A DNA stretch of 64,000 nucleotides. Source: Pseudovirgaria hyperparasitica (Eukaryota). The notes beneath the pieces were generated by a model. That model was not told where the DNA came from. It did no database searches and saw only the letters and a program-made list of their open reading frames with translations. Below, in pieces: positions 4,339 to 51,806 of this stretch; position 1 is the first letter of the stretch; the number at the start of each line of letters is the position of its first letter. Both the position numbers and the translations under genes were made by a program. Location of the stretch: the NCBI GenBank assembly GCA_010093815.1, contig ML996573.1; one strand, given 5' to 3'.

Positions 4339-4713
4339 TCATGTAAACTATTACAATCTCGTGAAGGGAAAGTCATGTCAACGACAGGTGACGACCATGT
4401 TACAAAAACTATACAACAGAAAATAGGAAAGTGAACTGAAGAATCTGAGATACCTACGGTGCTATAGCCCAGCCATTAATATGGTTCTTGATTGTGATCA
4501 TAAGCTGTCGGCCGAGTACGTTGCTCAGCATCAAATGTATAGTTTGGAGTAAACATGTGGCTGAAAGTCCTATTCGGTACTAGCTCCATCTCGCGCCACT
4601 AACGACATCATCACCATTTCGTTCAGATACTTATAAGGTCCTCGGGCATCACACATATTTCTCCAAATTCTCAGCTTCGGCGACGCCCCCTCAGTCAAGC
4701 TGGAGACATCCAA

Positions 4714-26520: not shown

Positions 26521-28185
26521 ATGGATCATAAAGAACTAAGAACGACGCCCGAATCAGTGGACAAATCGGAAGTTGTCTACATTGAAACTGAGTCAATGTC
26601 CTCGAGCAATTTTGATTCTCAGGACTTATCCATCAAAGATCAGTACCGACGACTTGGCAGAGCCATCAAAGCCGATAGTCGATTCTGTTGGTGGACAGGC
26701 TACTGTCTACTTTTGGTTTTTGGATGGGGCTATGACAATGGTCTATCTGGCGTAGCTATCGCATTTCCGGCATTCCGAGAGAGTTATGGTCATTACTATC
26801 CCGAAGCAACGACTTCTGGAGAAGAGTATGTCATTCCAGCCCTCTGGCAATCTCTCTGGAATGCAGCATCGACTATTGGACAGGTCTTTGGTGGATACGC
26901 AGCAGGCCAATTCGCAGATACATTCGGACGCAAAGCCATTCTGTACCTTGCTGTTTTCCTCTCTTTGGCATCCAGCTTCGCCTTGGTGTTTGCACCGAAT
27001 CTCCCAATTCTCTTCGTGTCGAAGCTGCTTCTTGGCCTTTCCATTGGTCTATCAACCGCAACCCCACCTCTTTACGTGACGGAAAACGCGCCCGCCCATC
27101 TGAGGTCTACTGTGGCGTCACTGACGAACGTCATCATCGTTCTTGGCTTCTTCATGTCGTCGATCACTGGCTTTGGCTCGTCTCATATCCAGGGTGTATG
27201 GTCATACCGCCTGGCCTTCGTTCTAACTTTTCTGATTCCTGGTATCTACCTCATCGGACTGCCATTTTTCCCTGAATCTCCCGTTTGGTATATGAAGAAA
27301 GACCGCGAAGAGGACGCCCGCAAAGCGCTCGTGAAGCTGTATGGTTCAAAAGTCGACATTGAAGGGCGTCTACAAATGATCCGCGACGAGCTGAAGCAGA
27401 ATGAAGCACCAACGGATGGTATCTCTCAGACTAGCTGGAAGGCAATCTTTTCTAGGGAGAACCGTATCCGTACCTTCGTTGCAGTCCTCGGTCTTCAAGT
27501 CCAGAACTTCTCCGGTGGATACTTTGCAAACACGTATCAAACATACTATTTTGGTTTGATTGGGGCCAAGGATCCCTTCCAACTCACAGCCATCTCCTCA
27601 ACCCTCCAGTTTGTGGCCAATTGTGCAGCAGTCGTTGTTGCAGATGTCGTTCCGCGCCGAAAAGGCCTTATCGGAGGTGGCACAATTCTCCTATTCTGGT
27701 CAGTCATCATTGCCGGTACTTCTTTGGCACCAAAAGACAACCATGTCGCAAACGTGGTGAATCTCGCTTTCATGATTACCTGGTCCATGGGATACACTGC
27801 GACAGTTGGATGTTACGGATGGGCGGTTGCCGCCGAGACCTCGTCACAAGCCACGAGACCGAAGACAATCTCATTTGTCCTTGTCTGTCAACAACTCACA
27901 GCGCTTCTACTTTCCAGCGTCTTTCCCTTCTTCATCAATCCTGACCAGCTGAATTGGGGTGGCAAGGTCATGTTCCTTTTTGTAGGCGCTGAGATCTTCA
28001 TCCTTGCTGCACTATTCTGGTTCCAAGGCGAGACCAAAAATCGTACGAATACTGAGATGGATGCACTCTATGCCTCTGGCGTCCCGAAGTGGCGATTCAC
28101 GCAGTATAGAGTAGTTGACAGTCATGTTGAGTTGAAGGAGAAGACCAAGGGGAGTCTGGTTGGCCGGATGCTCCGCAAGGCATAG
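26521..28185 (+). CDS. MFS sugar porter, maltose/alpha-glucoside permease-like
   Basis: About 12 hydrophobic segments, GYDNG, AFRESYG, ADTFGRK, YVTENAPAHLR, PESP, AETSSQATRPKT and INPDQLNWGGK, the last typical of the MAL-permease clade. Intronless. Confidence 0.92.
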   Translation: MDHKELRTTPESVDKSEVVYIETESMSSSNFDSQDLSIKDQYRRLGRAIKADSRFCWWTGYCLLLVFGWGYDNGLSGVAIAFPAFRESYGHYYPEATTSGEEYVIPALWQSLWNAASTIGQVFGGYAAGQFADTFGRKAILYLAVFLSLASSFALVFAPNLPILFVSKLLLGLSIGLSTATPPLYVTENAPAHLRSTVASLTNVIIVLGFFMSSITGFGSSHIQGVWSYRLAFVLTFLIPGIYLIGLPFFPESPVWYMKKDREEDARKALVKLYGSKVDIEGRLQMIRDELKQNEAPTDGISQTSWKAIFSRENRIRTFVAVLGLQVQNFSGGYFANTYQTYYFGLIGAKDPFQLTAISSTLQFVANCAAVVVADVVPRRKGLIGGGTILLFWSVIIAGTSLAPKDNHVANVVNLAFMITWSMGYTATVGCYGWAVAAETSSQATRPKTISFVLVCQQLTALLLSSVFPFFINPDQLNWGGKVMFLFVGAEIFILAALFWFQGETKNRTNTEMDALYASGVPKWRFTQYRVVDSHVELKEKTKGSLVGRMLRKA

Positions 28186-29066
28186 AAGAGTGGTATTTGG
28201 TGTCGGTGTATATTCATATCTTATTCAATCGAAATTGTTACAAAATTTCGGATATCTGTGGTCTCTTCTCAATCCTGTGCAGTATCCATAGGTCAACAAA
28301 CGGCCGGGTGAACGATATATAACAGCGAGCCTACGCACCTGGAAGTCCAATTTGTGGCTCCAATAGGACGACGAGGTACTAGACTTTAGCATTCTTGTCC
28401 TCCTGAATGTGCGGCAAGTTCTATCAACCATAGACCTCCATGTTCTCGGAAAAAAGAAGAGTGGGTTTAACCACTTGCTATCTCATTCGCGAAAGTTTCA
28501 CATATAGAATTATATGCAGCATACAGCACCATGTTCCCTTCAGACACGATGATAATCATAAGTTGGTCCATTCCGATTCTAACGTTCATGCCTTCACACT
28601 AGTGTATAGATAGAACTAGAACGACCGCAATCACGGTGAATCGGCTTATATAGAGCTATCCCGACGGGAGAGCTCGTGAACATCTCATGTCGGACCGAAA
28701 ACGCGCGATATAAGCTTTGTAGCTATGCACGAGATCTGAAATCCAGGAGGGTACAACGTGGAAATCGCCCGATGATTTGAGCGGGGAGCGGGGAAGCACT
28801 AAACTCGGCCCTGCTTTCCCCAAGCTGCCTAGTGAATATGTTCGATCGGAGAAATATTCCCAAATAAGCTTCCATCACGACGTAACATGTATTGCAGAAC
28901 CATCGCCCTCCATCCGGGCAGCTTTTCGGAGAAACGATACTTGAGGGGAATGTTGTTGTTAAAGGCTGCACCGCTGGTAGGGCCATTACCCAGAGTCAAT
29001 ATCACAGTTCTTATTTCGCCGATGCCCCAAGAAGACATTATTCACGATCGACAGAGTCCAATCGAA

Positions 29067-30818
29067 ATGACTTCATCAGCCATCGTAGAAAAAGCATGGT
29101 GGAAAGAAGCTGTCGTCTATCAAATCTACCCAGCCAGCTTCCTCGATAGTAACGACGATGGACTCGGGGACATACCAGGTGTCATCAGTAAAGTTGCATA
29201 TATCAAATCCCTCGGAGTCGATGCGATATGGCTTTCTCCCGTCTATACGTCACCACAGAAGGATATGGGATATGACATATCAGACTATCGGTCGATACAT
29301 GCGCCATATGGAACTGTCGAAGATATGCAGACCCTCATTAATGTCCTGCACGATAACCAGATGAGATTGTTGATGGACCTCGTTGTCAACCACACGAGTG
29401 ATCAGCATGACTGGTTCAAGCAGTCACGCAGTTCCAGAGAGAGTGAGAAACGTGGCTGGTATTTCTGGCGAGATGCGAAGATCGATACAAATGGCAATCG
29501 CAAAGAGCCAAACAACTGGCGATCAATTTTTGGAGGTAGCGCGTGGCATTGGGACGAAACAACCCAGCAATACTACCTTGCCCTATTTCTCCCTTCACAG
29601 CCAGATCTCAACTGGTCAAATCCGGAGATGCGCAGAGCTACATATGATGACATGCGTTTTTGGTTGGACAGGGGCGTTGATGGCTTCAGAATTGACTCAA
29701 TGAACCTCATGTCAAAGCATCCTGATCTCCCAGATGGAAAGGTGGTGAATAATGAGCCTTTTCAAGATGGATCTGAGTTTTTTGCTTCTGGCCCAAAGAT
29801 GCACAACTATATCCGTGAGATGCGCACGGAGGTGTTCGATAACTATGATTGTATGACCGTTGGCGAGCTTGGCTTCACGAAGGATGAGCAATCCGTCAGC
29901 CAATACGTGGCGAAAGATCGCCATGAACTCAATATGGTTTTCACCGGCGATATTGTTGATGTCGACTTTGGCCCCAATGGGAAATACGAGCGCACGATCA
30001 ACAACATTCCGCGAAAGATCCGTGAGATCACTGATCTTTGGCAACAGTCCATGCCCAAGTTCAATGGGTGGAATAGCGTGTACTATTCAAACCACGATAG
30101 TGGTCGACCTCTGACTCGATATGCCTCTGATTCCCCAGAGCATCGAGCAGCAGCTGCGAAGATGCTTGCAATGTACCTCCTATCCCTCGGAGGAACACCT
30201 TTCCTTTTGCAAGGCGATGAAATCGGCATGGCCAATCTTGGCAAAGACTACGGCCCAGATGCATATATAGATGTAGAAGCTAAGAACTACTACATTTCAG
30301 TCCTGAAAAGTCGTGGCGGTAACGAATCAACTATGGACGATGTTTTGAGAGAGATGCAACTCAAGTCGCGAGATCACGGCCGCTTACCTATGCAATGGGA
30401 CAGCTCTGTCAATGCCGGCTTCGCGTCACCAAAAGCACGTCCTTGGATGACTATCAACAAGGATTACACCGAATGGAACGTGGCGAGCCAGATCAATGAT
30501 CCAAACAGTGTATTCTCGTTCTGGAGAACAATGCTGACTCTTCGTAAACAGTACACCGATCTGTTTGTATATGGCTCATACAAGTCAATTCCAGAGTCTG
30601 TGATGGGAGAGGGAGTCATCGGATTTGAGCGTGCAGAACAGGTAGTAGGCGGAAAGAGAGCAGTCGTTTTTGTGAGTTTCTCGGAGCAGAAATATACAAT
30701 ATCGACAGATAAGTACGTGGGCTGGGACGTATTAGTTACGAATCACAGAGCTTCTGTCGACAACTCGTGTATCGAACTTGGACCGTTCGGCGCTCTGTTA
30801 TTGATAGACAGCAAATAG
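29067..30818 (+). CDS. GH13 alpha-glucosidase (maltase/oligo-1,6-glucosidase group), predicted intracellular; start probably 29067 (alternative 29022)
   Basis: WWKEAVVYQIYPASF, DMGYDISDY, DLVVNHTS, QPDLN, DGFRIDS (nucleophile), TVGE (acid/base), NHD and SRDHGRLPMQW. Intronless. Confidence 0.94.
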   Translation: MTSSAIVEKAWWKEAVVYQIYPASFLDSNDDGLGDIPGVISKVAYIKSLGVDAIWLSPVYTSPQKDMGYDISDYRSIHAPYGTVEDMQTLINVLHDNQMRLLMDLVVNHTSDQHDWFKQSRSSRESEKRGWYFWRDAKIDTNGNRKEPNNWRSIFGGSAWHWDETTQQYYLALFLPSQPDLNWSNPEMRRATYDDMRFWLDRGVDGFRIDSMNLMSKHPDLPDGKVVNNEPFQDGSEFFASGPKMHNYIREMRTEVFDNYDCMTVGELGFTKDEQSVSQYVAKDRHELNMVFTGDIVDVDFGPNGKYERTINNIPRKIREITDLWQQSMPKFNGWNSVYYSNHDSGRPLTRYASDSPEHRAAAAKMLAMYLLSLGGTPFLLQGDEIGMANLGKDYGPDAYIDVEAKNYYISVLKSRGGNESTMDDVLREMQLKSRDHGRLPMQWDSSVNAGFASPKARPWMTINKDYTEWNVASQINDPNSVFSFWRTMLTLRKQYTDLFVYGSYKSIPESVMGEGVIGFERAEQVVGGKRAVVFVSFSEQKYTISTDKYVGWDVLVTNHRASVDNSCIELGPFGALLLIDSK

Positions 30819-34844: not shown

Positions 34845-36119
34845 TGTGATATGGAGATGGGAGAGAAGGTAAGATATGAAGAGATTGGTATGTATGCTTC
34901 GTGTATGACTTGGTTGTAGATAGCTGAGCGTTAGACGAGAAGCTCAAGATCTGGTATTTTAGGTAGCTAGCATGTCACAACTCGGCAACGAGAGCTTAAT
35001 TCCGCTTATTTCTAAGATGTGAAACGAACGCACGGAAATGAACAAGTTTGAACTTTTTGCACTGTTTTGTCACTCGCGTATGACTATGTTGAGAACATCC
35101 CTTGCTATAACCAAACACTTATCCATTTCGAGCACTTTGTAGCCTGTATTCTATGCAACTCTATTATCCCAGCGATTCCTATTGAACTAAGCAATTGAGC
35201 ATCTACTTGAATGGTTCGTAGAGCAGCCCCTTGCCCCTAGTACAATGACTTGATAAGCATGCACTGCTTGCAGGCGGACAGTGAGAATAAGGGGCCAACT
35301 TCGGCAAGATCCAAGGTAGTAATCACTCTGATGATGTGGAAAGAATGACTCTGAAGACTAACGGCCTATCGAATAAGACGGTGCTATAGAGGTAGATCTC
35401 TTGCCCTCTGGTCCACGATCGTGACCTGTAGCCTAATACCGAGCTACAACTCTTCAATGTATAAACACATATACACCAAGTGACAATAACAGTATTCTAA
35501 AAATTTAGCCCGTGCTCTTACGTCAAGGGATGGTCGTATTACATGATTCCGGAGCCGAATACGAGGACCTGTTTGCAGTACCAATACAGTCTACAAGAAA
35601 CATCCAACTCTAGGAGAATGCACCCACAGCGATTGGCGTTAAACATAGGCATGAACCAGCATCCACCCTCTGGCCGCACCTCCGCTGGACTCTTAAGGAC
35701 ATTCGCACCTCCTCTTGAAAGATTGTAACTAGCAGCACGTCACACAGGCGGTAACAAGTTAGATAGTGTTAGATGTCGTTGTCTGCAGCGAACTATCCTA
35801 GAGACATCAGAGTTTAACACTTTAATTGCTATGGCAGACGGGATGATGAGAAGATATGTAAATATTGCATCCAAGCAGTGGTACAAGAGCTAGAACCTGA
35901 TGCTCCTTGAAATAATAATACACGCGGAGCTGTACATACATAAAGGCGTCATGATTTACCATGGAGTCGCAGTTTTTGCAATGGTGGAATAGTTTCTCTA
36001 GCTTCGTAGGTACATGAATTTCTCTTCGTGTCATACGAATCTCTTGACTATAAAGTTTGTAAGCACATAATAGATATCTAGCAAGTGATGACACTGTTGC
36101 CTGGCGACTCATCCATCTG

Positions 36120-37529
36120 ACATGGTGTCACAATCTTGCCGGCCATCTACTGTGAGATCTTCTATCCCACCGCCTTCGTGTCCCACCACCTACACCTTAC
36201 ACCCTTACAATAACATCCATCATCGCCTATAATAACATTCATCCCGTTAGTATCGAACCCTTCCACCTAGCCTTGATACCTGTACGATACCATCCCAAGC
36301 AAATATACGCATCATAAAGTCCAGCCGCGTGCCACGAAATGAGATGAAGCGACGAGACAAGGATAAGAAGCTTTCTTAAGACCAGCATCATGCAGACAGA
36401 GTCTACCCGCCTAGACAACACCATCTCAATGTACAGGCCGCGATGGCCGCCAAGCGTCTTAACATAGAGATCCTATGCTCGAGATGTTAGACGGGCGTGC
36501 CGCTCGCATCAAAGCGCTGCTATTAGATTTGGAAAACATGAGTGCTCACACAGTAGCAGGTGCCTTGTACCAATGCGAGGGGTGCCACCTACCAGCCAGA
36601 CTGGGAGCATGTACACGAGGATGTAGTCCTATCCCCAACGTTCAACGACCCACGAACCGAGGCAGAGTAAAACTCCCTGTCCAACTTTCCGAGCTTCACA
36701 TTGATTCTACTCACAAGTAATACAATTCTATCGAGCGATACTACAAGCATTATGAGATCATAACCGCAGCGAAGCACTTTAACAAGCATGATGACGATGC
36801 CACAGCCACGAAGCTCATGCAATCCGCCGAAACCATCCACCGACGCGAGGAGACGCGCGCAAAGAGGTTGAAGAAAGTGGCTAGCATATAATACTGGCCT
36901 TTATCAGGTCTTGAGTTCGAAGAGTGGTATCGCTTCAAGAGTGGTATTGTTTCAGTGGCAGGAAATTCTCGAGAATACGCCGCTCCCCCTATGCATCGTA
37001 TTCTCTAGAAGTGCCGCCAAAAACCACGGCCTCACACATCGACTCTATCATGACCTGATAGCCACACATCCAAAAGCTTCGGTAGAGATTACAGAGAAGG
37101 CAAAAGGGTGAAGCCACCTCGGAACCTGCTTATGGAGCTACGTACACAACTGGTCCAGGAGGACAGGCATGCCATTGAGTCAGCGGACATGGAAAGAGCA
37201 GAGAGACTAAGAGACATGAAAGACACCGGCGAATACGTGGGCACTCCGAAAGAGCAAGAAGCTACCGGAAGACTCTAGCTGAACTCATTTCGGAGCGCGA
37301 GTTCTGGGATATGACAGACAATACAAAATGATCAAAACGCCTTGGCAACCTCCTCGTGAGACTACTTGTAAATGCGATTAAGCAAAATAAGCATGATATC
37401 GAGTCGAAAGAGCTAGACATTGTAAAGTAGCTCAAGGAGTTTATAAAGGTGGGCGAACGGGTCGACACTAGCAAGGGCAAGGAGTAAGCCATTACTAGTG
37501 ATAATGAAGGAGACGAGGATGTCGATTGA
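36120..37529 (+). pseudogene. Degraded coding sequence of unknown family (boundaries approximate)
   Basis: The frame of ORF 36475-36720 continues with protein-like sequence through isolated stops TAA 36718, TAA 36889, TAG 37006 and TGA 37051. After an apparent frameshift near 37260 it reads ..KTLAELISEREFWDM.. with further stops and ends DNEGDEDVD*. Confidence 0.6.
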
Positions 37530-38086
37530 TAGCAAGAGGACATAATGGATTGATTGAATATATATATCACGAGTCGAATTCAATCGCGAAGTATACCAAC
37601 AGCAACTGCGTCTGAATTAGAGCTTATACCATCAACACTTAATAATTAAGTAAAACGCGTTCAGCATCCACTGATTTCTCAAGCTTTGAATTTCCGAAGC
37701 CATACCTTCGCGTAGCATGCCGTGTCGAAAAACTAGAACTCTCCTGTAACTCTATCCAGCCGTTTGTAGTGGTGACGAGAACCCTCTGTTTGCTGCGTAC
37801 TAGAGCATTGCCAGTTGTCCCAACAACGCAACAGGCTGAATTTCGACAAGTCACTCTCAGCACGTCATAGACACGATGTCAAGATCATCCTGTGCGTCAT
37901 CATGGCTACGGTGTAGGCTCTGTGAAGTTATCACTAGAGGATTTGCCAGCACATAGTGGTAATTGTCAGGTAGACACGATACAGTAATCTGAACTATAAG
38001 AAGACTACATTATCATGGCTAAGGATCTATGCAGAACAGATGTGGGTTACTTCTGGATCTGTGCTTGATAGGATCTTATTCTTACA

Positions 38087-38718
38087 ATGACTCGCAAAAA
38101 TCAAAAGGGGCGCAGAGCCCAATCTACGCGTCCGGCTGATGTACGTATCGAACCTTCTCTCCTATCAACATAACCCCATTAATACATCTTCTCCAGCCCG
38201 ACCCACACAGCCAAAGCCCACGAAGAGGTACCCAATCATTCCAAAACAACAGTAGAAGCAGCAGTAAGTCCCAGCTCATCCATCAACACAAAACAAGCCA
38301 ACTCAAACCCCCCCAAGCTCGCCCACCACAAAGCAACCCTCCACATCCACCTTCCAAACCCCCCTCCCCATCGCGCCCTCGCCAAACATCCCCAATCCCC
38401 TCCCCAAAGCCCACCCAACAAGCAGCAGCACACAAGCCACCCCAACCGCACCGCAAGAAAAAGCACCGCCGCAACCGCAAGAACAAACGCCCGAAACCCA
38501 CCCCCAACTACATCCCCTACTTCACCCACCACGAGCCATACCCGCCAGCCACGATGCACCCGCACTGCACATCTCCCCACATGCGCTACCGCCCCTGCGT
38601 TGAATGTGCCTGGCACTGGATGTTGCAGGACTGCATATATGAAGGGCAAGAGATGGGACTATGGGACGACACGATAGTGCATGGACTTGATCGTGCTATA
38701 TTCCGGATGTCACGGTAG
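38087..38718 (+). CDS. Small orphan protein A (~191 aa): Pro-rich, basic NLS-like patch, C-terminal Cys/His domain; exons 38087-38140, 38197-38718
   Basis: CTTACAATG start and intron 38141-38196 (GTACGT..CTCCAG). Exon 2 is open for 174 codons, ending HRKKKHRRNRKNKRPKP...HPHCTSPHMRYRPCVECAWHWMLQ...AIFRMSR*. Homologous to the convergent neighbour. Confidence 0.75.
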
Positions 38719-39084
38719 TGTTGGGATGGGTTGGAGCTTGGAAACTTCTATATTGGCAATACGATACGTCTGAAATGGGGTTCTGGGCTGGGTAGAATTG
38801 TGATGTGGTGTGTTTGATATGAGGATTCTGTGATGTCTGAGTGAGTGGCATTGACGTGTACTCTACACCGAAGCAGTGCGTATGCATGTCTAATCCGCAC
38901 TAATCTACATACCTCAGGCATGCACGACGAATAAACACACACACTTCTATAATCAGCATAGAATTGTCTAGCGCCCGTGCTATACTCCCTCCTCCTCACC
39001 ACCCACACACATCCCTTCCGCACCCTTTCAAGAACTCACCTAACACCCTCGCCCCTCACAATCAGTATACATGATATCTATATA

Positions 39085-39650
39085 CTACATTCCCCCCTCC
39101 ATCCTCCCCAACGCATCCCTTAACCCCCTCCTAACCGTCTCCGCCTCCACCCCAGTCACAAGCGCCAGATCCACCATCCGCTGCAGCCAGAAAAAGTAAA
39201 GACAGTCGCCGCAATGCAGCGTTCTAAAATGTGCTCTTTCGCAGAGCGGGTGTGCGGGGCCCTGCTAGCATATTTAGCTTCGTATCAATAATGAATGAAT
39301 TCTGATGGGAGGGGAAGGGGTGTGCTTACAGTTACCGATCTACCACGCACATCATTCCCAGTGAGGGACACGGGTGTTGACTGCTGAGAAGCAGACAGAG
39401 TATTGGTGGTGGGCGTTTGTGGAGAGGCTTGGGGTAGGCGGGCGTTGCGTGCCTCGATGGCGGCTTGGAGGGCGTTGTCGTGGGTGATGAGGTCTGCGAA
39501 GGGCATGTAGCGGAGTTCTGAGGGGTTTTGTTAGTGGGTGGAGGTGAGGTTGGGGTTATGGGTAGGGTTTTGCTTACGTTCTGCGGTGAGACGGCGGTCT
39601 GGAGAGGGGGTGCGCCATGCGGCGGTCTTGTTGGGAGAGGAGTTGTTCAT
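39085..39650 (-). CDS. Small orphan protein B (~146 aa) with the same C-terminal Cys/His domain; exons 39650-39578, 39517-39330, 39264-39085
   Basis: Introns 39518-39577 (GTAAGC..ACTAAC..CAG) and 39265-39329 (GTAAGC..TAG, followed by CAG). The 441 nt spliced CDS ends HPLCERAHFRTLHCGDCLYFFWLQRMV...ALGRMEGGM*. Confidence 0.78.
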
Positions 39651-41149
39651 TGTGGTGTTGGTGTGAGGGTTGGGGAAGCTTGGTATGGTAAGAGGTCGAA
39701 GTTGTAGAGAAGTCGAGTTTGTGGTAAGATGAAATGAGGTTCGTTGCTGGTAGGAAGATTTTGGGATAGTTTTGAGTTTAAATAAGTAGTAGGGAGGAGG
39801 CAAGGCAGAGTGCAGAGTAGAATAGTATGGCTGTTTCAATTTCCATTAGGTATTGACAGGTGCTATTTGCCAACACAACAGAGCAATGTTCATTCACGCC
39901 GACGTACGAGCACGGGATCTCTGACCGTTCGCTATTCATCTTCAATACGGACATGGTGCGTCTCTGCTCTGGTGACAACACGGGGACTATTCGACTCCCT
40001 CGTGATCAAGGTATAATAGTATAGCGACTCCCATTGAGTATATCAGCTGTCCTGCCAGCCCTGAATGAACCATCAAACACCATGGCTCAGTCACATAACC
40101 ATGCCAACAAACCACCCATTCATATGCTCACTATCCAATTCATCAGTGAATCACACCAAACAATAAGACCGACAACATCTCAATACCCATCCCCTCTCAC
40201 CGATCATACCCCTTACCTGTCTGTCACAAGGAACTGATCAGATCTCCCAGGCTAGCTCAGCCATTCTTCTGTCATGATTGGATCCCAGCCGTACGACCAA
40301 CCAAAACCCAACTTACTCTTTCACTCGCTCCCTGAAGTCGGAGTGAAGCAGACGTAGAAGAAACCCCGTAGGCGCCATAATGCTAGGCTCTATATCTGTC
40401 CGTCCCTGCGAGAGGCCCGTAGGAACTGCCGAGTTATTGGGTAATATGCCGTACATGTTGCTGTTACGACTCATGGAGTAGCTCAAAGCTTCGACAAAAA
40501 CACGACTATTGTACACCACGAAGTTGGACGCGTCGAATCACACCCGAGCTGCCCTCACCATCATCTCACCGCCAAAACTAATCCATCCTCACAGATACCA
40601 CCGCAACATCATTATCGCACAGGAGTCCTCCTAATGCAGTAAAATATTACACACCTACTAGTAGCCCCTATCTCCACATCTCGTTGGACCAGGTACACAG
40701 CGTCTAGGCTGAGGGCAAGACGCACACACATTCCACCTCACAAGCAAATATGCTCACAGGAATCAAAACTCACACACCCCATCCAAGCTCACAGGCAAAG
40801 ACCACTCACCGCCAATGACAGCGAAGAATCGAGCACCCGAACTATCCTATAAGGAAGTACAGCTCTCCCCGACACCAATCTCAAGCCCTAATCTATATCT
40901 TTAGTCTTAAATCTCAACCGGGGTAAAGCCGCCAGTATCCAGACACTGCAAAGTAAGAAGAAATATCGATACAAGCCATTACTGGAATAGCCTTGTTCGC
41001 AGGAACCCAGCAGGGGTGAGGAGGGGAGGAGTCTTGCAGGACTGATGGCGCTTTGTAGTCATATACATACACATATTGTCAGACAGTTACGTTTCAATAA
41101 AAATCTCCTAATTCCCGTCTGATATCATTTCATTTCGGTCTCTCTGCAC

Positions 41150-41530
41150 GTACATCTTCTCCTCTCACATACATCTTCTCTCTCACCCACACCCCCTCGT
41201 CTCTCTCCCTACATGTCCCATACCATACCATACCATACCATACACACCATCACAAAGGTATACCATACACACCATTCCATACCAAAACAAAACAGAACAG
41301 AACAAAACCAAGAACAAGTCCGACTTTACACTCCTCCCCAACAAAACAGATCGCGATAACATCTCCATGAACTCTTTGCGTCAACTGAAACATCATATTC
41401 CCCTCTCCCCTCTCCCCTCTCCCTTCCCCTTCCAAAAAAACCCCCGAATAACGAGAAAAATATACAACGAAAGAAAAAAAAAGAGTCATCCCTCTCCTCT
41501 CAAACACCCCTCAACCCCCTCTCAATCCCC
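41150..41530. repeat. Low-complexity and microsatellite tract downstream of the giant ORF
   Basis: (CATAC)n at ~41218-41243, CAAAA/CAGAA repeats, and C/T-rich and poly-A runs. Confidence 0.7.
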
Positions 41531-41532
41531 CC

Positions 41533-44500
41533 TCAATCCCCCTCCCACGTCGGCATCCACTCCATCCCCGGATAACTCGCCGCAAACATGACCGGCTCAT
41601 CCTCCTCCTCGCCCTTTGGCACAGCGCTCAGCTCTGCGATGCCTTCTGGTGCGTCGAAGACTTTGCTACTGGCGGCAACAACAGTGCCAGACACACCATT
41701 ACCTGGAGCAGCTGGAGTATGAGCAACAGGTGTAGTACCATCAGCATCAGCATCAGCACCAACACCACCCAGACCACCAGATAGCGCGGGAGAGGAAGTA
41801 TGCGCAGCCAAGCTATCCGCTTGCTGTGCGGTGTGTACGGTGACGCTTGCGTCATTCTCATGCGAATTAGCGGAAGATGTAGTCGTAGGCGAGGAAGTAA
41901 GTGTGTGCACAGGAGGAGGTGGCAGGATCTGTCGTGCCTCGGGGGATGCGCGCGGATTTGTACTCATGTCGACTTGCTGCGCATCTGTGTCCATACGATT
42001 TGTCGTCGGAGGATTGGCAGCAGCAGCAGCAGCATCACGAATATCCGGCACGGCCGGGACGCCGTTCTGCCCTGGGACTATGGCATCAAAGGAGCCGGAC
42101 TCGCGGCTTGGATGTGCGGAATTTGCGGGAGTGGGATCGGTGAGGAATGTTGGGCCGTCTATGTTGTTAGCTACCTCTTCGCGGAGAGGATGGGCTGTGG
42201 GCGGCGGGGGCGGCGGCGCGGATGAAGGGGTGTGTTTGTCGTCGAGCAGAGGTGGCGAGGGAGAATGGTGGTGGTTCGGGGGCAGCGGGAACATTTTGAC
42301 TGATGGGGCGCGTGGGATATGCTCTGTTGACACGGCTGATTGTGGGATTGGGCTGAGTGAGTGTTGGACTTCTCGTGGAAGCACTTCGCGGTAGCCTGGT
42401 AGAGGGGGCTGGTGTGGAGGACGAGAGGGGTGTGGTGAGGGTTGCTGGGCGTGGTGCGAGGGATAGTTTGATTGCCCGTCTGGATGCTGCTGCTGATGCT
42501 GCTGCTGCTGCATGTGTTGCGGGACTTGGTGAGTTGGCTGTTGCTGGTAATGCTCCGGAGACGATGTTTGCCCCTGAAGCAGAGGGTGGCGCGGTGCCGG
42601 GGGAGCATGCATCGTGTTCTGGATCTGGTGGATCGGATGTTGCGGGTGTTGAGCCGGATGCTGAGGCGGCTGCTCGTGCGGAGCCGCGAAGCGGAAACCA
42701 GGCGGCGGCTGTGGTGCTTGATTGTTGTTGGCGAAGAGAAACCCGGGCGGAGGGCCACTGGCTTGAGGATGCATTGGGGGACCTTGCATTTGCTGCGCAG
42801 TCTGCACTGGAGCACCCAGAATCTGGGATGCCTTGGGATGGCTCATCTGCATTCTGTGCTCTTCCTCCTCCTCTACGCCATTCGGTAATGTTATAGCCCA
42901 TGGCCTCTCTTGCTGACCGCCATCTTTCGAGTTTCGCGCGGCCTTGGACTTCTTCGTCTCCCCAAACTTGGCTGCACCTATAGCTGCGCCTACCAAGCCG
43001 CTTCCAAACAGTTTCTTATGAGCCGGCGGTGACGACAAAGGCGACACAAGAGGCGGCGACATCGGTTGCGTCAGTCTGTTATGACGGCCCGGGTCGGGCT
43101 TGACGTGAGCAGCGTATGAATCAGATGAGAACTTCCGGGGTGGCCCTGTGGATGGCCCTCGGAAAGGATCCCGGGGATCGCGGCGCCAGGTCGGGCTTTC
43201 AGTCGACAGAAGTCCCGGTGGTGTAAGAGGCCCATAGGGATTGAGCGGTCGCTGGAAGCCTTGATCGTTGATGTGGCGAAACGACCTGTCATAAGCCGCG
43301 GGCAGTGGCACATCGTCATACTTGGGCTCAGGAGGAGTGATTATCCCTTTATCCATTGGCGAAGGAGTCCTACCATTATGATGCGGCGAAAATGTCTCGA
43401 CAGGCGAGATGCCGGGATGTAGTTGATTCTCATGGATAGGTCCAAGAGTGCTACTAGACTTCACGAAGCTATTCCCTCGAACGGCATTCATCGCCTCGTC
43501 GTCAAGTTCTTCATCTTCCTCGTCGTCCATATCCTCACGTAACAGGTTGCCCTCCCCGTACTTGTCAGATTGACGGGAAGTTCTACCACTCATGCTGTGG
43601 GAGGTATGCGACCTCTCAGGATAAGCCTGCGAAGGCGGGACTTGTCGCACAGCTTGATAGGCAGAGCCGTCATTAGTGGTGTTCCCATTCACCTTGGATT
43701 CTGACTTGAATGCCTTTAGAGCATTAGGTGAATTGTAACTTCCAACGCCGTCCCTTTGCAAGAACTTTTTCATAGAAAATCGATTCTTCTTGTTGCCGCT
43801 GTCGGGATGATTCGATGGAGTCTGGAATGACATTCGGTGTGCAGCCTGTACCGCCGACGAAGAGCTGCCAGCACTGCCATTACTCGGACGCGGTTCGCCA
43901 TGTCCATTCATGGGTGTGATCTCTTGGACAGCAGAAGGCCTGCCGAGCACCTTGAAGACCCCAATAGCCTTGCCCTTGAGCTTAAACCGATCCGCGTCCT
44001 GCGTAAAGAAGGAAAGGCCGTGCGCTCTAGACGGCTCCTTTCCTTTATCCATTCTGTGCCCCTGGGATGCATAGCCCGGCTCCTCGTTCTCTTTCCTAAA
44101 GTTAGGATCTGCCTGCAACTTCAGTTCTAGTGCCTTCTTTGTAGCCTCTCGGTAGCCAGAAAGCTGGTAGGCGACGTGCTCTTGGCTTGGGTCGATTGGC
44201 ACGATCGGAGTGTGTCGTGGTTTTCCTCCTTTCGGCGACGTCGTCGATGGCCCAGGCTGGTAGGCAATATCGGGCTCGATGGGATCGTGTTGTGCTGGTT
44301 CTTCCGCGATTGGAGGGTGTGAAGCACTAGGAGTACGGAAGCCATTCTCCGCGCTATGCTGGCGTTGCGTAGGTTGCCTTTGCACTGGTATATCCTCCTC
44401 TCGAGCGGGCTCCTGAGTTTGGCGAAAGTCATTGTGTTGCGGACCCATCTGCTGATGCACCGCGAGCTGACCAAACGACGACCTTTGCTCCTGCTCGTCT

Positions 44501-47259
44501 GGCTTTAATGTCTTCGGTTCTTGATTCCGATTGATGTTACGTGCCACGAGATCCTCCCTGTCTTGTCGCTCTTTCCTGGTGATTGTGCTTACTCGTTCGA
44601 TTGTCTTGCCCTCGCCATCACGAGGCAGGGTCACAAATGACATGGGACGTGAATCCGCAGAGTCAATCGAGCTTCGCAATTGGCGATCATCCTTGCTAGT
44701 ACGATTAGTCCAAGACGCGAGACTCTGGACCCCTAAACTGTCTTTCGATCTGTGCCGGCCTGTAGTCTTCTGAGTCGTCGCCGAGCTCTGGGACGGAGCA
44801 TGTGATTGCCCGGGTGTTGTCGTCGAGTCGTGGGTGGTTATCGTTGGTGTTCCTTTCGCGTGCGTCTGCCCTTGGTGGATCTGATTTGAAGGAGGCGGCA
44901 CTACTCCGCCATGGTCGCCGTAAAGGTCATCGTCTGACATTAGACTCGCGACGCTCGCGTTGTCTGCATTTTGATTTATCATGAGGTTCTGCTGACTCTT
45001 TAGACCCGGCATTGATGTACCATTCTGTTGCAGAATTGGTTTGTCTCCGGGCTTCATTGTATTTCGGATTGCCGGATGCAATGCCAATGGAACCATCGCA
45101 GCTTCCACGTCACTCTTGTGTCTTTGGATCGAAGATGGCGCCTCGGTATCGTCCCCAATAAGCGTCTCATCATTCTGCGGAGGCGTTGCGAACGATCGTG
45201 TCGGATCAGCACGCTGAGGTGCGCGGGGCGGAGTAGACAGCCGCGGAAGCTCGTCTTTGGCATCATATTTAAACGAGAATGAAGGAGACGGTATCGTTAC
45301 GTCCAAACCCCTAATATTGCTAGTCTGTACCTTCGGTATATGCTGAAAGAACGCGAGTGGCTTGACAGGAATTGGTGTATCTTTAGGCGGAGGAAGTGGA
45401 GGTCGATTCTGCAATCTCGGTGGCTCCGGAGCAGCCACGACGCGTACGGCATACCCTTCGGTGCGGATCGGCTTGGACCCGGACTCAGAAGAACCATTTA
45501 CCACGGCGTTCGACAGCGCTTGAAGTAATGCGCCCTGGCGTCGAGGCGCTTGCGATAGCTGTGCACCGGGAACCGCATCATAGCCATTCAACGGCGAGTC
45601 TCTTCGGACTTCGCGCTTCGTGATCATCGGCGGTCCATTGACAACTGGCGGAGGGGGTGGAGCAAATTCTTGCGCAAGGGACAACGGACTCGGCTTGCGT
45701 GCGTGTTGATCTTCAAATTGAGGTGGGCGATCGAATATTGGCGTCGGGTTCTGCGATGCCTGGACTGTTGGAGTCAAGACAATGTCTCCTGGAAGACTAC
45801 AACTGTCACCGGCGGAGGAATCGTCATCGCTGGCGACCCCGGACTTGCTCGGTTGCTGCGTCGCAAGGGGGATCTGGATATGTGGTGGTTGCGTCGCATT
45901 GCGATCCGTCCTCTGCACGTGCGTGGGCGCATTTGCTTCACCATAATTAGTAGCAGCGCCATTTTCTATATTCACATTGTCGTCCTCAAAAGAGAACCGT
46001 GTCGGGGCTTGAGGAGTTTCATCTTCATCCACTGCCGTCGTGCTTGATCCATCGTGAAGAAAGGTGTCAACCTGCTGGCCGACTGCATCGTCTTCATCTG
46101 GGTCTTGCAGATGTGATTGCCCGCCTAGATTGCTTGCAGTCGCATCGGCAGACGCACCCCGAACAAAGTGCCCTGTCATGTTTCCAGCGTCCGGCGTTGG
46201 CTCATCGTCTTCTTCAGATGAACTATCCACCTCTTCCTCCCGGACGTTCATTTCCTTCTCCAGACCATAGGAATTCTGAAGAGCGATCTGTTCCTGCTCT
46301 CTCTGTCTCTCTGCAAGCAACTGGTCTCGCTCTTGGTTTCTATCCGAGTCAGATATTGGGCTGACTAGAGATGCGCGACGCTGGTCGATGGTGGGAGGTC
46401 TGGTGCCGACTGGGCTTATCTCGCCATCCTTGTTGATCACACGAGCCTGAACACCGGTGCCAATCTCTATCTCGTCGCTCACCGGATCGGAGCCCGAGTC
46501 TATCGAAGACTCGTAGCCATCCACACCATCTTCAATCTCCTTTTTGAATTCCTTCAGTTCGTCGTATATCTCGGGATTCTCGGTGAGCGTTCGATCGGGA
46601 TCCTCCTCAGCGGAGACGTGGTTCGGCTGCTCGTCCGCTGTGGCAGTCATAGTTGCAGGATCGACGCCCTGCACGGCCTGTAGCTGTTCCACACTGACGG
46701 GCAGGCTCGCGTGCCGCATGACACTCCTCAGAATCCTATCCTGAGCACCGTCCGGCAACGGCGGCTCGTCTTCCATGTTCCTCAAGTCGCCCCAAGACCT
46801 CTTATGTATGGACGTCGGCGCGGGAGACGGTAGGACGCCGAGATGTGAATCTACCACGCCATTAGAGTTCGGGGGAGGCGTAGTCGGCGGTTCAGGAAAC
46901 GCAGCGGCGGTGGCAGCAGCAGCAGCGTCAGACGCGTAGGTCGGGTCGACGTACGTCGTCTGGGGCAGGCGACGCGAGCTCCAGGCCTGCGCTCTCGAGA
47001 CGTCTATGCCAGAGCCGCCCAGCCACGAGTGAGGGCGGTGGTGGTGGTGTTCGTTGAACTCGCTATGATCGAGCTCGCTGGCGCGTTCGGTGTTGCGCCG
47101 CAGCAGGAAGATGCTGCTGGGACGCGAGGACGGCTTTGACTTGCGAGCGAACGGGCCTAACGACCAGCTCCGTCTGTGAGATTGCTTTTCCTCGTCATTG
47201 GCGTCGCGCAGGGTTCGCAGGCGGGGGATTGACGCGACCGAGGCGGACCGTGAGTACAT
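41533..47259 (-). CDS. Giant low-complexity (Pro/Ser/Gln-rich) protein, ~1900 aa; frame open upstream to 47550; may be the 3' exon of the upstream gene
   Basis: 6 kb uninterrupted ORF with first ATG at 47259. Short motifs RPMSFVTLPRD, EPKYDDVPLPAAY, QERPWAITLP and C-terminal MFAASYPGMEWMP. Confidence 0.8.
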   Translation of the reverse strand: MYSRSASVASIPRLRTLRDANDEEKQSHRRSWSLGPFARKSKPSSRPSSIFLLRRNTERASELDHSEFNEHHHHRPHSWLGGSGIDVSRAQAWSSRRLPQTTYVDPTYASDAAAAATAAAFPEPPTTPPPNSNGVVDSHLGVLPSPAPTSIHKRSWGDLRNMEDEPPLPDGAQDRILRSVMRHASLPVSVEQLQAVQGVDPATMTATADEQPNHVSAEEDPDRTLTENPEIYDELKEFKKEIEDGVDGYESSIDSGSDPVSDEIEIGTGVQARVINKDGEISPVGTRPPTIDQRRASLVSPISDSDRNQERDQLLAERQREQEQIALQNSYGLEKEMNVREEEVDSSSEEDDEPTPDAGNMTGHFVRGASADATASNLGGQSHLQDPDEDDAVGQQVDTFLHDGSSTTAVDEDETPQAPTRFSFEDDNVNIENGAATNYGEANAPTHVQRTDRNATQPPHIQIPLATQQPSKSGVASDDDSSAGDSCSLPGDIVLTPTVQASQNPTPIFDRPPQFEDQHARKPSPLSLAQEFAPPPPPVVNGPPMITKREVRRDSPLNGYDAVPGAQLSQAPRRQGALLQALSNAVVNGSSESGSKPIRTEGYAVRVVAAPEPPRLQNRPPLPPPKDTPIPVKPLAFFQHIPKVQTSNIRGLDVTIPSPSFSFKYDAKDELPRLSTPPRAPQRADPTRSFATPPQNDETLIGDDTEAPSSIQRHKSDVEAAMVPLALHPAIRNTMKPGDKPILQQNGTSMPGLKSQQNLMINQNADNASVASLMSDDDLYGDHGGVVPPPSNQIHQGQTHAKGTPTITTHDSTTTPGQSHAPSQSSATTQKTTGRHRSKDSLGVQSLASWTNRTSKDDRQLRSSIDSADSRPMSFVTLPRDGEGKTIERVSTITRKERQDREDLVARNINRNQEPKTLKPDEQEQRSSFGQLAVHQQMGPQHNDFRQTQEPAREEDIPVQRQPTQRQHSAENGFRTPSASHPPIAEEPAQHDPIEPDIAYQPGPSTTSPKGGKPRHTPIVPIDPSQEHVAYQLSGYREATKKALELKLQADPNFRKENEEPGYASQGHRMDKGKEPSRAHGLSFFTQDADRFKLKGKAIGVFKVLGRPSAVQEITPMNGHGEPRPSNGSAGSSSSAVQAAHRMSFQTPSNHPDSGNKKNRFSMKKFLQRDGVGSYNSPNALKAFKSESKVNGNTTNDGSAYQAVRQVPPSQAYPERSHTSHSMSGRTSRQSDKYGEGNLLREDMDDEEDEELDDEAMNAVRGNSFVKSSSTLGPIHENQLHPGISPVETFSPHHNGRTPSPMDKGIITPPEPKYDDVPLPAAYDRSFRHINDQGFQRPLNPYGPLTPPGLLSTESPTWRRDPRDPFRGPSTGPPRKFSSDSYAAHVKPDPGRHNRLTQPMSPPLVSPLSSPPAHKKLFGSGLVGAAIGAAKFGETKKSKAARNSKDGGQQERPWAITLPNGVEEEEEHRMQMSHPKASQILGAPVQTAQQMQGPPMHPQASGPPPGFLFANNNQAPQPPPGFRFAAPHEQPPQHPAQHPQHPIHQIQNTMHAPPAPRHPLLQGQTSSPEHYQQQPTHQVPQHMQQQQHQQQHPDGQSNYPSHHAQQPSPHPSRPPHQPPLPGYREVLPREVQHSLSPIPQSAVSTEHIPRAPSVKMFPLPPNHHHSPSPPLLDDKHTPSSAPPPPPPTAHPLREEVANNIDGPTFLTDPTPANSAHPSRESGSFDAIVPGQNGVPAVPDIRDAAAAAANPPTTNRMDTDAQQVDMSTNPRASPEARQILPPPPVHTLTSSPTTTSSANSHENDASVTVHTAQQADSLAAHTSSPALSGGLGGVGADADADGTTPVAHTPAAPGNGVSGTVVAASSKVFDAPEGIAELSAVPKGEEEDEPVMFAASYPGMEWMPTWEGD

Positions 47260-47964
47260 GGACAAATTCGGGGCCCGGGATGAGGAGAATTTGTCAAGAG
47301 TTTGGTATGCGGATCGCGCCGAGGCGTCCTGCGAGTCCACTTCAAGGCATATATGTATGTAAGTAGGGAATGCGGTGTTGGCGTACCAAAGGGAATAAAG
47401 GGAAGAAGTGATAGCAATAATGAACGAGTAATGCGCGATGTAGTGTAGCGGGAGCGAGTCGAGGGTTAATGGTAAATCAGAACTGGAGAGAGATGTCTTG
47501 GAGATGAATGATGGACGGGGCTGAAGTTGGCGAAGGCTTAGACGCTCCACGTTCGAATCTCAGCCAATCGAACAATTCACAACCAGCAAACAATCCCCGG
47601 CCCCGTCTATGGATCCATGCGGCGCGACGGCGACAAACTACTCCACATCTTGTCCTTTAGGCCCTTTAGTGGCGCCAGGGTTACCAAAGAGACGAGGCAT
47701 CCGTGCATAGATGGATATATATATATGTGTGTGTATATATATACATACACCTAAAAACAGTCTTGTCATCATCGCCAATATATGCAGGGGAACATCGTGC
47801 ACCCGCCGATCTGTGTGCTGGCTGTGCTCAATTTATATGTCACAAATCACCCTCATCATTATCACCAGCTTCATCATCAGCCGCCTTGCGCATACGAGAC
47901 AAGTAACAGAGGAACAAGGAGAAACGTCGGAAAGTTGGCATATATGATAGCTGCGGCCATTAAA

Positions 47965-50900
47965 TCAGTCCACCACCTTCTCGCCGCCTCCCTTGAGCCG
48001 GCTCTTCCCCTTCGCAAACAGACCCCTGGCACTTGTCGTTGCCTTTCCGCCAAATATACCCGCAGTCTGTAACAGTTCTTTGCCCTTTGCCTGGACCTTC
48101 GCGCCACCAGAAGGACTAGACGTTCCGGTGTGGGCAGCACTCACAGGTGAGCCTGCAGCCACGGCCGGGCTCGATGGCGAGTTGGTTGATGGCTGGTGTG
48201 AGAATGAGGGCTTGCTGGAGGTAGCAACTTGGTTCATCTTGCTGAAAACACTGAGCGACGGCGCATGTCGGTGCCGTGCTGACGAAGGAACCGCTGCTGG
48301 AACATTCGGTGCCCTGATGGCGATGTTCCTGACGTCTGCATGCTCTGGGCGCGCCGCTAGTGTGATCTCCAGCCAGTTACGCAAGCCAGTATCCATGTCT
48401 GCAAATTGCTTGCGAGTTAAGTCGTACTTTTCGGTGCGCTCATGAGCTGACTTCAGAACGAGTATCTCTCTGAAAGGCGGGATGCGCCCTGGATCAGCGA
48501 CTGCTGCGGCAGACGCAGGCGGCCCAGAAAATGATGGCTGCTGAGCTTCCACAGTCGGCTCGATTGGTTCATCTTGCTGAAGACTGGATACCTTTGACAT
48601 TTCCGCACTTGGTCTACCATACGTCGGCTCCTCAATTGCTTCGGGGTTCTCAGTATTCAAAACATGCAGGCCTCTGTTGACGACGGGTCCGGTGGTGTCA
48701 GGCGTGCTCACATCACTTGCAGCAATGTTAGCCGGAGGTGGCGGAAGTGGTGAATTGGTCGAAGTAGGAATCGGAGCGGCCGGGGATGTCTCTGTAGGCA
48801 ATGCGATCGGGGCAGACCCCGAGGGCTTCGGCGCGGGCTTTTCCCACGAGAAGCGTCGATCTAGATAGCCAGGTCCTGTTGAGGCGTCCAGCTCCACGGC
48901 TTTCTCCACTACGGGAGCTTCCACAGTTGTCTCCGGCGAGGTAGGCTTCGATGTGACATTTCTGAATGGATAAGTGTCAGCGCCTCCTGGCCCTCCCCAG
49001 AAAGAGTCGTACTCGGCTGGAAGAACAGAACTATCTCGAGACAATGCAGCCTCGGGAGCAGCCAGTTTTTGGGCCAACTTGGCGGCTTGGGGGCTCTCGG
49101 AGGCGATGGGACTCAGAGTCTGCACAATCTCTTTCCGTAGACGATCGCTTTCTTCATCGTTCGGCGAGTTATCGGTGCTTAGGCGCGGCACGCTGACAGA
49201 CTGTTCGGCAGTCGATATAGGAGGGAGCATGTCAGGGACAGGTGTAGCTTCACGGCTTTTTAGCGGGGGCACTGGCCGAATCTCATTGGAACTTTCACTC
49301 TGGCTCTCATCGTCAATATCCTTCGGCGGAGGTGTTGGTGCAATCGTGGACTCGGTCAAGTTCGACTCGATGCGTTGAGGTCCCAGTGGTCGACTTTGCA
49401 CCTCACCGATATCTCTACTTTTGGGTGTCTCCTCAGAGCTACCGAAGCCTGCGGCTGCTTTGATAGACTCTCCCATGGCGGCACCTGCTGCAGCTAGTGC
49501 AGACATCGCATCGCTTGGGCTTGTGACGTTGCCCTCCGGTGTTTCAGTCCACTTTGGAGATGTCGCTTCCAAGTCGACAGCATTGGCATCATGTTTGTCT
49601 TCCGGCGCATTCTGAAGTTGCTTTTCCGGCTCGCTCGGGGTGGCTAGACCAGGAGTAGACACATATGATTCCCACTGTCCGGGAAGTTTAGGTCGGAAGC
49701 TTTCTTCGCGAGCAGGTGCTGGCCTTGCATCTGTGGAATGCACTGTTGTGTCTTGTTTGGCGCTCTTGTTCGAAGAGACCGACTGTACCGAGTTTCTTCT
49801 CGATTCAGCATCGAACTTCCCAGCCAAGTCGCGAACACGTCCTTTCGATGGTGACTCTGATCTATCACGCGGTATGGCTGGATTTGGTGCAGTGAACTCT
49901 CTGGTCTGCTCAAGGAACGCAGCCTGGGACTCTTTTTCCTGCCCTGCCAGCTTCGCTACGTCTCTTTCGGGGCTGGTGACGATGGCTTGGGCGATGTCTT
50001 CTTCTCGCATAGTATAATCTTTCGTAGGGCTTGGAATCTCCGACGTCGAAGCACCAACGGGACTAGCAACATCTATTTCTGCCGCAGATGGAAAGCGTAA
50101 ATGGGCTGTTGAAGCAATGACCGGAGAGCGGGCAGGGCTATCGGTGGGAGTTGGTGAGACAAGACTCCGCCGCTTGGGATTTGAGCCACCGGATCCGGTG
50201 CGCGAGTGGGTTGCCTGATCAGGTCGAAGTGGTGCTTGATCCAGTCCATGAAGCGTCGCAGATGCACGCCTTGACGCATTTGGACTTTCCTCTGCGATCA
50301 CAGGTGTCGCCATGTCTTTTGCCTCTGCAACTCTCGCACGACTTGCTGCTGCTGCGGAGCTGGGAACCCGACTCATGATTGGACTGATACCACTCGTACT
50401 GTCTGTGTTGCTGCGCGATACGCTCGACCCAGTCTCTGAAGTCGACCCCGGTTGACGGGACACGGGTGTTGGTGGGACAGAATTGTCATCCTTGCGCGTG
50501 AATGCCTGGTCGACCACACCTTTGATCTCCGACGATGTATTGTTACTAGACGACGCAGGCTGTTTCCGGGAAAGCTGTCTCTGAACAGGTGGGGTAGCCG
50601 GGCCTGGAGAATATCCTGCTTGTGACCAGAAGTCATCGCCAAATGACGTACTGGAGAACTCTGGCAACGCTGGCGAGTTACTAAACCGCTTGGCCGGCGT
50701 AGTTGTTGAAGTCGCTGGTGGAGCCTGGATTTGTGGAGCTCCACTGGTCGCAGGAGGTTGTGCAATGTTTTCGCTCTTCCCTTCGGCGACCGACTCTAGT
50801 GGTCGCGCGCTTCGACTACTATCTTCAGCCGGCCGGCTGCTGAGAGAATCGACACTCGGGCGGCTAGATTCCATTGAAGCACGCTCCTTTTCTCTCGCTT

Positions 50901-51806
50901 CTGCTATCCTCTTGTATATATCTGCAGGGCGGATGAGGTTCGGTGTTCCGCTGGACTCACTGCCTGTACGTTGTTTCAGTGCCGTAGGCGTCGCGTCCAA
51001 TGAACCCAGCAGGTCTGAAGGAGCATCATCTTGGCCAAGACTGCTCTTCCGTGGCGGAAATTTCGAGACTGGCGATTCTCCGGGGCCGACAGAGGGCCGT
51101 GTCTGTAGGGGCTGTGGCATGGCGGATGGGTTGTAATCTTGTCTCCGTTGAGGCTCCATATTCGCCGACGGCGTCTCGGAGATGACGGAGTGGCTCCAGC
51201 TTGCGGCGCTCGATTGGCGACTGGCAGCCGGCTGTGATGGATAGCTTTGTTGCTGGCCACTCCGAGTATACTGCTGCTGAGAAGCAGGACCCGAAGCAGA
51301 AGCCATGGAGGCTGGACTCTGCATCAAGCTCTCTTCGTGGCGCAAGTTGTTTGCAGGTCCGCTGGTATCGATGCGATGTTGAGGGGGATGTGGTCCAGAG
51401 AATGCGCGCCTCTCGTCGCCGGTGTCGAAGGAATTCTTTCGTCCCATTGCCTGCGAGGGGGCAGATCGAGGATCCGTGAAGTTTCTCGCAGCATTCGATG
51501 GCATCTGCTGCTGCTGAGGCACAGGAGGAGGTGCCGCACTAGCACCATACTCGTCCTGCTCGTCATATTCGCCCCAATCGTCACCATCATACGAGAAGGA
51601 CTTTGCTTCCACCCATTTCTTTGTCTTTGCGCGGTTCACATTTGTGGAAAAGGAGGGTGGAGGGCCGCCAGGAGGACCTTGTTGTCGGCGATCACTGAAC
51701 GTATTCGTGTCAGCTATAGCCCTAACTAATAATAACAGTCGTAGAGATGCTGATCAACTTACAGAGGTGAGCGATGATCTTGCGCAAACTGCCATGGACG
51801 CGACAT
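47965..51806 (-). CDS. Large low-complexity fungal protein (~1250 aa); probable exons 51806-51763, 51694-47965
   Basis: 3.7 kb ORF with motifs NVNRAKTKKWVEAKSFSYDGDDWG, IRPADIYKR, SFRPKLPGQWESY, DRLRKEIV, RRFSWE and QFADMDTGLRNWL. Intron 51695-51762 (GTAAGT..GCTGAC..CAG) links an upstream ATG. First exon less certain. Confidence 0.82.

Follow-up and report, generated by a model that had tools for sequence, protein, structure and literature searches.

Zinc sites made of one histidine and three cysteines (CHCC type) are known from the zinc-binding anti-sigma (ZAS) proteins, from the ICP27 homology domain and from the C-terminal domain of S. pombe Dcr1; the ZAS site reads H-x3-C-x2-C and is part of the anti-sigma helical domain. 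The CCHC zinc knuckle (Pfam zf-CCHC) has the form C-x2-C-x4-H-x4-C, and the UstYa-type motif is HxxHC. At the level of genes, a locally duplicated pair of fungal orphans with a mis-modelled terminal exon is a familiar kind of thing.

We analysed a pair of small genes, A (plus strand) and B (minus strand), that are direct neighbours and convergent in a window of 64,000 nucleotides, by which we mean the whole stretch of DNA under analysis. Like other orphan genes and local orphan pairs of filamentous fungi, A and B are small hypothetical proteins without relatives, carry low-complexity parts and lie in a gene-poor stretch; unlike them, they share a C-terminal module only, and the likeness becomes visible only once the gene model of B is revised. 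We put the probability at roughly 0.6 that A and B truly have a C-terminal module in common and that the last exon of B is lacking from its public model. What is new here is this one proposed exon and the likeness that results from it, the genes themselves being already annotated. The initial annotation had spoken of a hidden pair, which holds for the third exon of B and hence for the likeness, but not for the loci, both of which are publicly annotated. They match public proteins of Pseudovirgaria hyperparasitica, a dothideomycete and rust hyperparasite, on a 1.58-Mb contig. Haridas et al. (2020, PMC7082219) present the species as a mycoparasite with an annotation from the JGI pipeline. The features of A and of the spacer that separates it from B are as follows.

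38087..38140, plus strand: exon 1 of A, 18 codons from the ATG at 38087, equal to the start of KAF2757589.1
38141..38196, plus strand: intron of A, 56 nucleotides, GTACGT...CAG, whose removal reproduces KAF2757589.1 exactly
38197..38553, plus strand: first part of exon 2 of A, low-complexity sequence rich in Pro, Ser and Gln, with the basic patch HRKKKHRRNRKNKRPK
38554..38718, plus strand: C-terminal module of A, M-HPHC...FRM-SR plus the stop codon TAG at 38716-38718
38719..39084, no strand assigned: 366-bp spacer between A and B, presumed 3' untranslated regions

The spliced product of A has 191 residues and is letter for letter KAF2757589.1 (EJ05DRAFT_501120, annotated as a hypothetical protein). 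The reading frame that encodes its module spans 38140..38718 (+). In the Pro-rich part (38197-38553) the coding score is high without being frame-specific: all three plus frames are open and score alike, so that the public model of A receives no frame-specific support. The whole of the support for the reading frame of A is its length and its likeness to B. The antisense strand of this CA-rich, low-complexity stretch is likewise open, over 140 codons (38236-38658, minus strand).

On the opposite strand, gene B begins at 39650 and is read towards A, the two stop codons (38716-38718 and 39085-39087) being 366 bp apart. In the direction of transcription, its features are the following.

39578..39650, minus strand: exon 1 of B, with the ATG at 39650-39648 and a frame-specific coding score
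39518..39577, minus strand: intron 1 of B, 60 nucleotides, GTAAGC...ACTAAC...CAG, whose removal reproduces KAF2757590.1
39330..39517, minus strand: exon 2 of B, a helical segment and a Ser/Thr-rich linker, within KAF2757590.1
39265..39329, minus strand: proposed intron 2 of B, 65 nucleotides, GTAAGC...GCTAAAT...TAG
39085..39264, minus strand: proposed exon 3 of B, 59 codons, QGPA-HPLC...GRM-EGGM plus the stop codon at 39085-39087

The public protein of B (KAF2757590.1, EJ05DRAFT_501121, annotated as a hypothetical protein) has 101 residues and uses the first intron only. It reads through the first 42 nucleotides of the proposed intron 2 and ends at a stop codon at 39287-39285; as intron 2 is absent from this model, the shared module sits behind the annotated stop. 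With both introns removed, B encodes 146 residues, and exons 1 and 2 equal KAF2757590.1. The donor of intron 2, GTAAGC, is the same as that of the accepted intron 1, the intron is in phase, and its YAG acceptor lies at the first base of the module frame. The junctions proposed initially (38140/38197 in A, 39578/39517 and 39330/39264 in B) all delimit GT..AG introns between open frames. The gene models built on them agree with the public ones for the whole of A and for exons 1 and 2 of B; the signals of intron 2 are good and of a rare kind, but the public model of B does without this intron.

The acceptor of intron 2 is itself a tandem, TAG|CAG| (39262-39267, minus strand), in which the second CAG (39264-39262) follows 3 nucleotides on and is also in frame. 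Two in-frame acceptors make a B product of either 145 or 146 residues possible, differing by one Gln. A further observation concerns the part of KAF2757590.1 that reads into intron 2: residues 120-130 of A (TPNYIPYFTHH; 38444-38476, plus strand), a short way before the module, bear a faint likeness to the read-through segment TPLPLPSEFIHY of B (39288-39323, minus strand). Their order with respect to the module is the same in the two genes. With an E-value of 31 the likeness falls short of significance; a true relationship might point to a formerly coding intron in B or to the loss of an intron from A.

How often would an intron of this quality link a small open frame to the frame upstream of it? 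We scanned the window for donors of the form GTAAG[TC], GT[AG]AGT or GTA[CT]GT and introns of 45-120 nucleotides, with a YAG no more than 15 nucleotides from the start of the ORF and an in-phase upstream frame that is open for at least 60 codons. Such an in-phase link with a strong donor is present in 6 of the 456 window ORFs of 50-90 aa, a frequency that is somewhat weakened as evidence by the link criteria having been fixed after B was seen. Exons 2 and 3 of B are among the six, together with probable true introns of an ion-channel gene and a syntaxin gene. The proposed exon 3 is contained in no protein of the searched collections. A sequencing run of uncertain type, probably DNA, yielded two short contigs at a depth of about 3 (38378-38575 and 39505-39712), the second of which is unspliced across intron 1 of B; such a run is silent on splicing.

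The pair lies within a gene-poor stretch (33.9-41.5 kb) in which no other gene-like ORF of at least 90 aa is present, between a membrane-protein-like ORF that ends at 33904 and an ORF of 2008 codons that starts at 47559 on the minus strand. No Rfam family reaches its gathering score within 36000-42000. The 2008-codon frame (41533-47559, minus strand) has a high content of Q, P and S and seems to be disordered over most of its length; like the 1262-codon open frame at 47968-51753 (minus strand), it is without a Pfam match at 1e-5. Between 52479 and 53913, a syntaxin-5-like gene is covered on both strands by four open frames that overlap and are about 300-480 codons long, and Pfam domains (Syntaxin-5_N, SNARE) occur in the plus-strand frame 52663-53913 only. 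F-box-like domains are found in two ORFs at opposite ends of the window (4603-5967, plus strand, and 54420-55898, minus strand). Elsewhere, positions 19659-30815 hold a run of genes for carbohydrate use, which may be a co-regulated sugar-utilisation cluster.

19659-20771, plus strand: CE2/GDSL esterase
21536-23161, minus strand: Fungal_trans transcription factor
24202-26100, minus strand: GH32 glycosidase
26497-28182, plus strand: MFS sugar transporter
28836-30815, plus strand: alpha-amylase-family enzyme

Aligned by BLASTP, the modules of A and B share 16 of 51 residues (24 of 51 positives) without a gap, at 31.6 bits. The initial annotation had quoted the two peptides, this count, the shared putative Cys and His ligands and the gap of 366 bp correctly, as the sequence and BLASTP confirm, and neither of the two domain frames is in its ORF track (at least 60 aa; ATG, GTG or TTG starts), as it had remarked. 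Conserved in both modules are H-P-x-C-x3-H-x5-C-x2-C, an L-Q pair and T-x-x-x-G-L-x-x-A-x-x-R-M, and the stop codon follows the shared R-M after two residues in A and after four in B. The alignment takes up all of exon 3 of B and runs to the C-terminal end of either frame. Outside the module the two proteins look unrelated, in agreement with what had been claimed of their N-termini: the best match between the public A and B proteins has an E-value of 5.4, and the first introns agree neither in position nor in phase.

At the nucleotide level, 69 of the 153 aligned bases are identical (45%), distributed over the three codon positions as 25, 25 and 19 where about 13 would be expected at each; for the third position alone, the comparison is 19 of 51 against 13.5 expected. 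Eight of the 16 identical residues are encoded by identical codons, about 7 being expected by a hand estimate, so that nothing points to recent copying or gene conversion. A DNA alignment of the two arms shows a likeness essentially confined to the module, and a repeat search over 37500-40300 returned only short low-complexity direct or inverted matches, with no inverted repeat across the two modules.

The modules were folded separately by AlphaFold2 in single-sequence mode. For A (a query of 62 residues) the models contain helices at 16-19, 24-41 and 47-61, the best model having a pLDDT of 68.5 and the other four 43-60, which makes for a shaky fold. For exon 3 of B the helices are at 6-10, 18-37 and 41-57, with a pLDDT of 78.0 for the best of five models (69.7-78.0). 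When the offset of 5 residues between the queries is applied, the two long helices of A differ in position from those of B by no more than one or two residues, and in both predicted modules the first long helix begins at the C-x2-C. Co-folding of the A and B modules with two zinc ions gave a score of 0.01 and a mark of 0.34, a verdict of no support that speaks neither for nor against a heterodimer. A search of the PDB by Foldseek gave no match at an E-value of 0.001 or below for the model of A or that of B, and VIA-align against 48161 chains gave generic helical hairpins only (best Z 4.9).

How does this module compare with the known sites? It resembles the CHCC sites in the type of its ligands, in that one His and three Cys are combined and a C-x2-C opens a helix in a helical context; in contrast to them, its spacing is C-x3-H-x5-C-x2-C, it matches no solved structure, and its own metal site is putative. 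A ZAS-type site was rejected on the spacing, which is H-x5-C-x2-C instead, and on the lack of any PDB sequence match at an E-value below 8; nor is there an anti-sigma chain among the matches listed in the fold searches, which is by itself a weak test. With the CCHC knuckle it has in common a short Cys/His cluster in which four ligands fall within about 15 residues, whereas the order and spacing of the ligands differ and the cluster lies partly in a predicted helical hairpin and is then followed by it; we rejected this assignment as well, given the C-x3-H-x5-C-x2-C spacing and the lack of a Pfam match. The UstYa-type motif fails on its second histidine, the module having H-P-x-C and not H-x-x-H-C. 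In the literature searched, the motif was not found, written either as CX3HX5CX2C or as C-X3-H-X5-C-X2-C.

No relatives of the module came to light in the collections that we searched. Word-based protein searches with A and B returned self-matches only, and each protein is alone in its own 90%-identity cluster. A profile built from the two modules found no relative among 1.84 billion representatives, while A itself was recovered at 2.2e-33; a translated tandem repeat of 860 residues, at 1.1e-5 summed over nine weak stretches, we regard as junk. Pfam, consulted at E-values up to 10, gave nothing for exon 2 or exon 3 of B, and for exon 2 of A we set aside the matches to SOG2 (E 0.47, 10.3 bits, with a cut-off of 26.9) and Ndc1_Nup (E 7.2), which involve the low-complexity part only. 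The profile search of the PDB was empty too, with a best E-value of 8.4, and of 226 pattern matches in JGI metagenome contigs none was confirmed. In the ESM Atlas, A had no usable feature matches, its structure matches being short helical pieces from mixed families, and the best feature score of B (0.88) fell under the bar of 0.9. Among the annotated proteins of P. hyperparasitica no further copies turned up. A and B are orphans in the sense that no homologue was found in the annotated proteins and metagenome contigs searched; unannotated copies or orthologues of the module are possible. By the sequence and fold searches run here, the module belongs to no described family, and on this point the initial annotation was right, the searches of Pfam (E up to 10), PDB profiles and folds having all come back empty. 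It had also held that a lack of conserved orthologues would speak against gene status; none was found, and by that reasoning the result counts against the genes.

Is the likeness between the two modules above chance? For this one pair taken alone, the Smith-Waterman score of 68 was not reached in any of the 20000 shuffles of B or the 20000 shuffles of A, all of which preserved composition (maxima 60 and 55), and Gumbel fits to the shuffle scores give a p of about 1e-6. We also compared by BLASTP, all against all, the 1275 stop-to-stop ORFs of at least 30 aa in the window (88439 residues). A and B form the best non-overlapping pair, with 30.0 bits and an E-value of 0.001 per query, followed by pairs at 27.7, 26.9, 26.6 and 26.2 bits. 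By score alone the pair is therefore the top of a continuous noise tail, about one such pair being expected per window. The paralogy asserted by the initial annotation would fit the shuffle result, but the match is not significant window-wide by score alone, and no orthologues were found.

A first alternative, which we consider rather unlikely, starts from this ranking. The 101-residue model of B would be correct, the 59-codon frame would be untranslated 3' sequence, and the match, picked post hoc, would be the best that noise is expected to yield from the roughly one million segment pairs possible in the 64-kb window. Several properties of the alignment are in line with this: the five C/H matches make up over half of the raw score, and at the 35 non-identical positions the hydropathies correlate weakly and not significantly (r 0.23, permutation p 0.09). 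The non-coding-like composition of both segments, the lack of any homologue and a public B model without intron 2 point the same way. The position of the pair can be argued from either side. Three of the other 39 pairs listed also lie within 2 kb of each other, at 24.6-26.9 bits; however, assuming that numbers halve with each further bit, we estimate that neighbour pairs (no more than 2 kb apart) with at least 30 bits occur about 0.07 times per window. Nor would chance readily produce the features that lie outside the score, namely adjacency, the in-phase intron link of B (a strong-donor link seen in 6 of 456 ORFs, true introns included), a shared C-terminal register in which the alignment ends at both stops, and helix registers that agree between separate folds. 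Because chance would need several independent coincidences of this kind, the balance of probability lies with a shared module.

Coding potential bears on both the chance reading and on a second alternative. We scored it as codon log-odds of 15 long window ORFs (10216 codons; 11 ORFs with Pfam domains) against their other five frames, which on windows of 57 codons separates coding sequence from random small ORFs with an AUC of 0.89. Exons 1 and 2 of B reach the 86th-90th percentile of true coding windows, in the annotated frame only, and the frame-specific score of exon 2 is above that of 99.6% of small ORFs. Both module segments, by comparison, have log-odds below 99% of 172 true coding windows and, set against 567 random small ORFs, rank at the 16th-17th percentile. 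These low scores come mostly from an amino-acid make-up rich in C, H, W and M, which would be expected of a real Cys/His domain too. The synonymous part of the score is low for exon 3 of B (4th percentile among coding windows and 9th among random ORFs), with an AUC of only 0.68, and uninformative for the module of A. The ESM Atlas 'recognition' value of exon 3 of B is 2419; a value of 2300 is reached by 91 of 100 known-family proteins and by 9 of 100 shuffled ones, and a high value is no proof of a real gene. The initial statement that the pair is kept under selection finds no backing in these figures: in both segments, codon usage and amino-acid make-up resemble those of non-coding DNA.

Under the second alternative, A and B would descend from a common sequence without being two working proteins: an old inverted duplication of which one or both arms are non-coding or decaying. 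Exon 3 of B could then have fallen out of use, and the ORF of A, which lies in the CA-rich stretch, could be spurious or very young. A segment composition that resembles non-coding sequence would suit such a relic, and so would the proline-rich part of A, open and scoring alike in three plus frames, the gene-poor location and the orphan status of both A and B. It is harder to reconcile with the state of the frames, which are intact to the same end and have kept the five C/H positions through 51 codons with no indel despite a nucleotide difference of 55%, a pattern that we infer would be hard to maintain without selection on a protein. The same combination of 51 ungapped codons and 45% nucleotide identity would argue against neutrally drifting DNA in general. 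The splice signals of intron 2 of B are also intact, and we consider a relic distinctly improbable.

We therefore return to the reading with a shared module, in which A and B would be convergent, lineage-restricted genes ending in the same module of about 55 residues, that is, partial paralogues. The module could have spread by local inverted duplication, or by the shuffling of a segment that in B corresponds to a single exon. The public model of B would miss a 65-nucleotide intron and the last exon, and its true product would have 145-146 residues instead of 101. As for the module itself, it would consist of a His/Cys knuckle, H-P-x-C-x3-H-x5-C-x2-C, whose C-x2-C opens the first of two long predicted helices, and of a second helix that carries T-[IV]-x-x-G-L-x-x-A-[IL]-x-R-M. 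The knuckle may hold one zinc ion through C, H, C and C, which would pin the N-terminal turn onto the helical hairpin; the residue pattern, conserved in the two sequences as C, H, C, C with an upstream H and located where a helix begins, makes zinc binding a possibility to which we give somewhat less than even odds. The whole would then serve inside the cell as a small binding module, joined in A to a basic tail rich in proline and in B to a short helical part. That it binds protein or nucleic acid in the nucleus is a guess, as are the nuclear location suggested by the basic patch of A and the heterodimerisation of the two products. A bolder version, in which a zinc-stapled helical-hairpin domain was born in this gene-poor stretch and copied in inverted orientation, giving a newborn family of two members whose products pair through their hairpins as a small nuclear regulator of the rust hyperparasite, strikes us as very improbable.

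If A and B do share this module, the model of EJ05DRAFT_501121 would be corrected by the gain of an intron and a 59-codon exon, and a small and so far unique module of Cys/His cluster plus hairpin would join the domains born within fungal lineages. The finding is a local curiosity, without bearing on a long-standing question. On a modest scale, the pair would nonetheless illustrate the spread of orphan genes through local duplication, and a paralogy that was hidden by a missed terminal exon.
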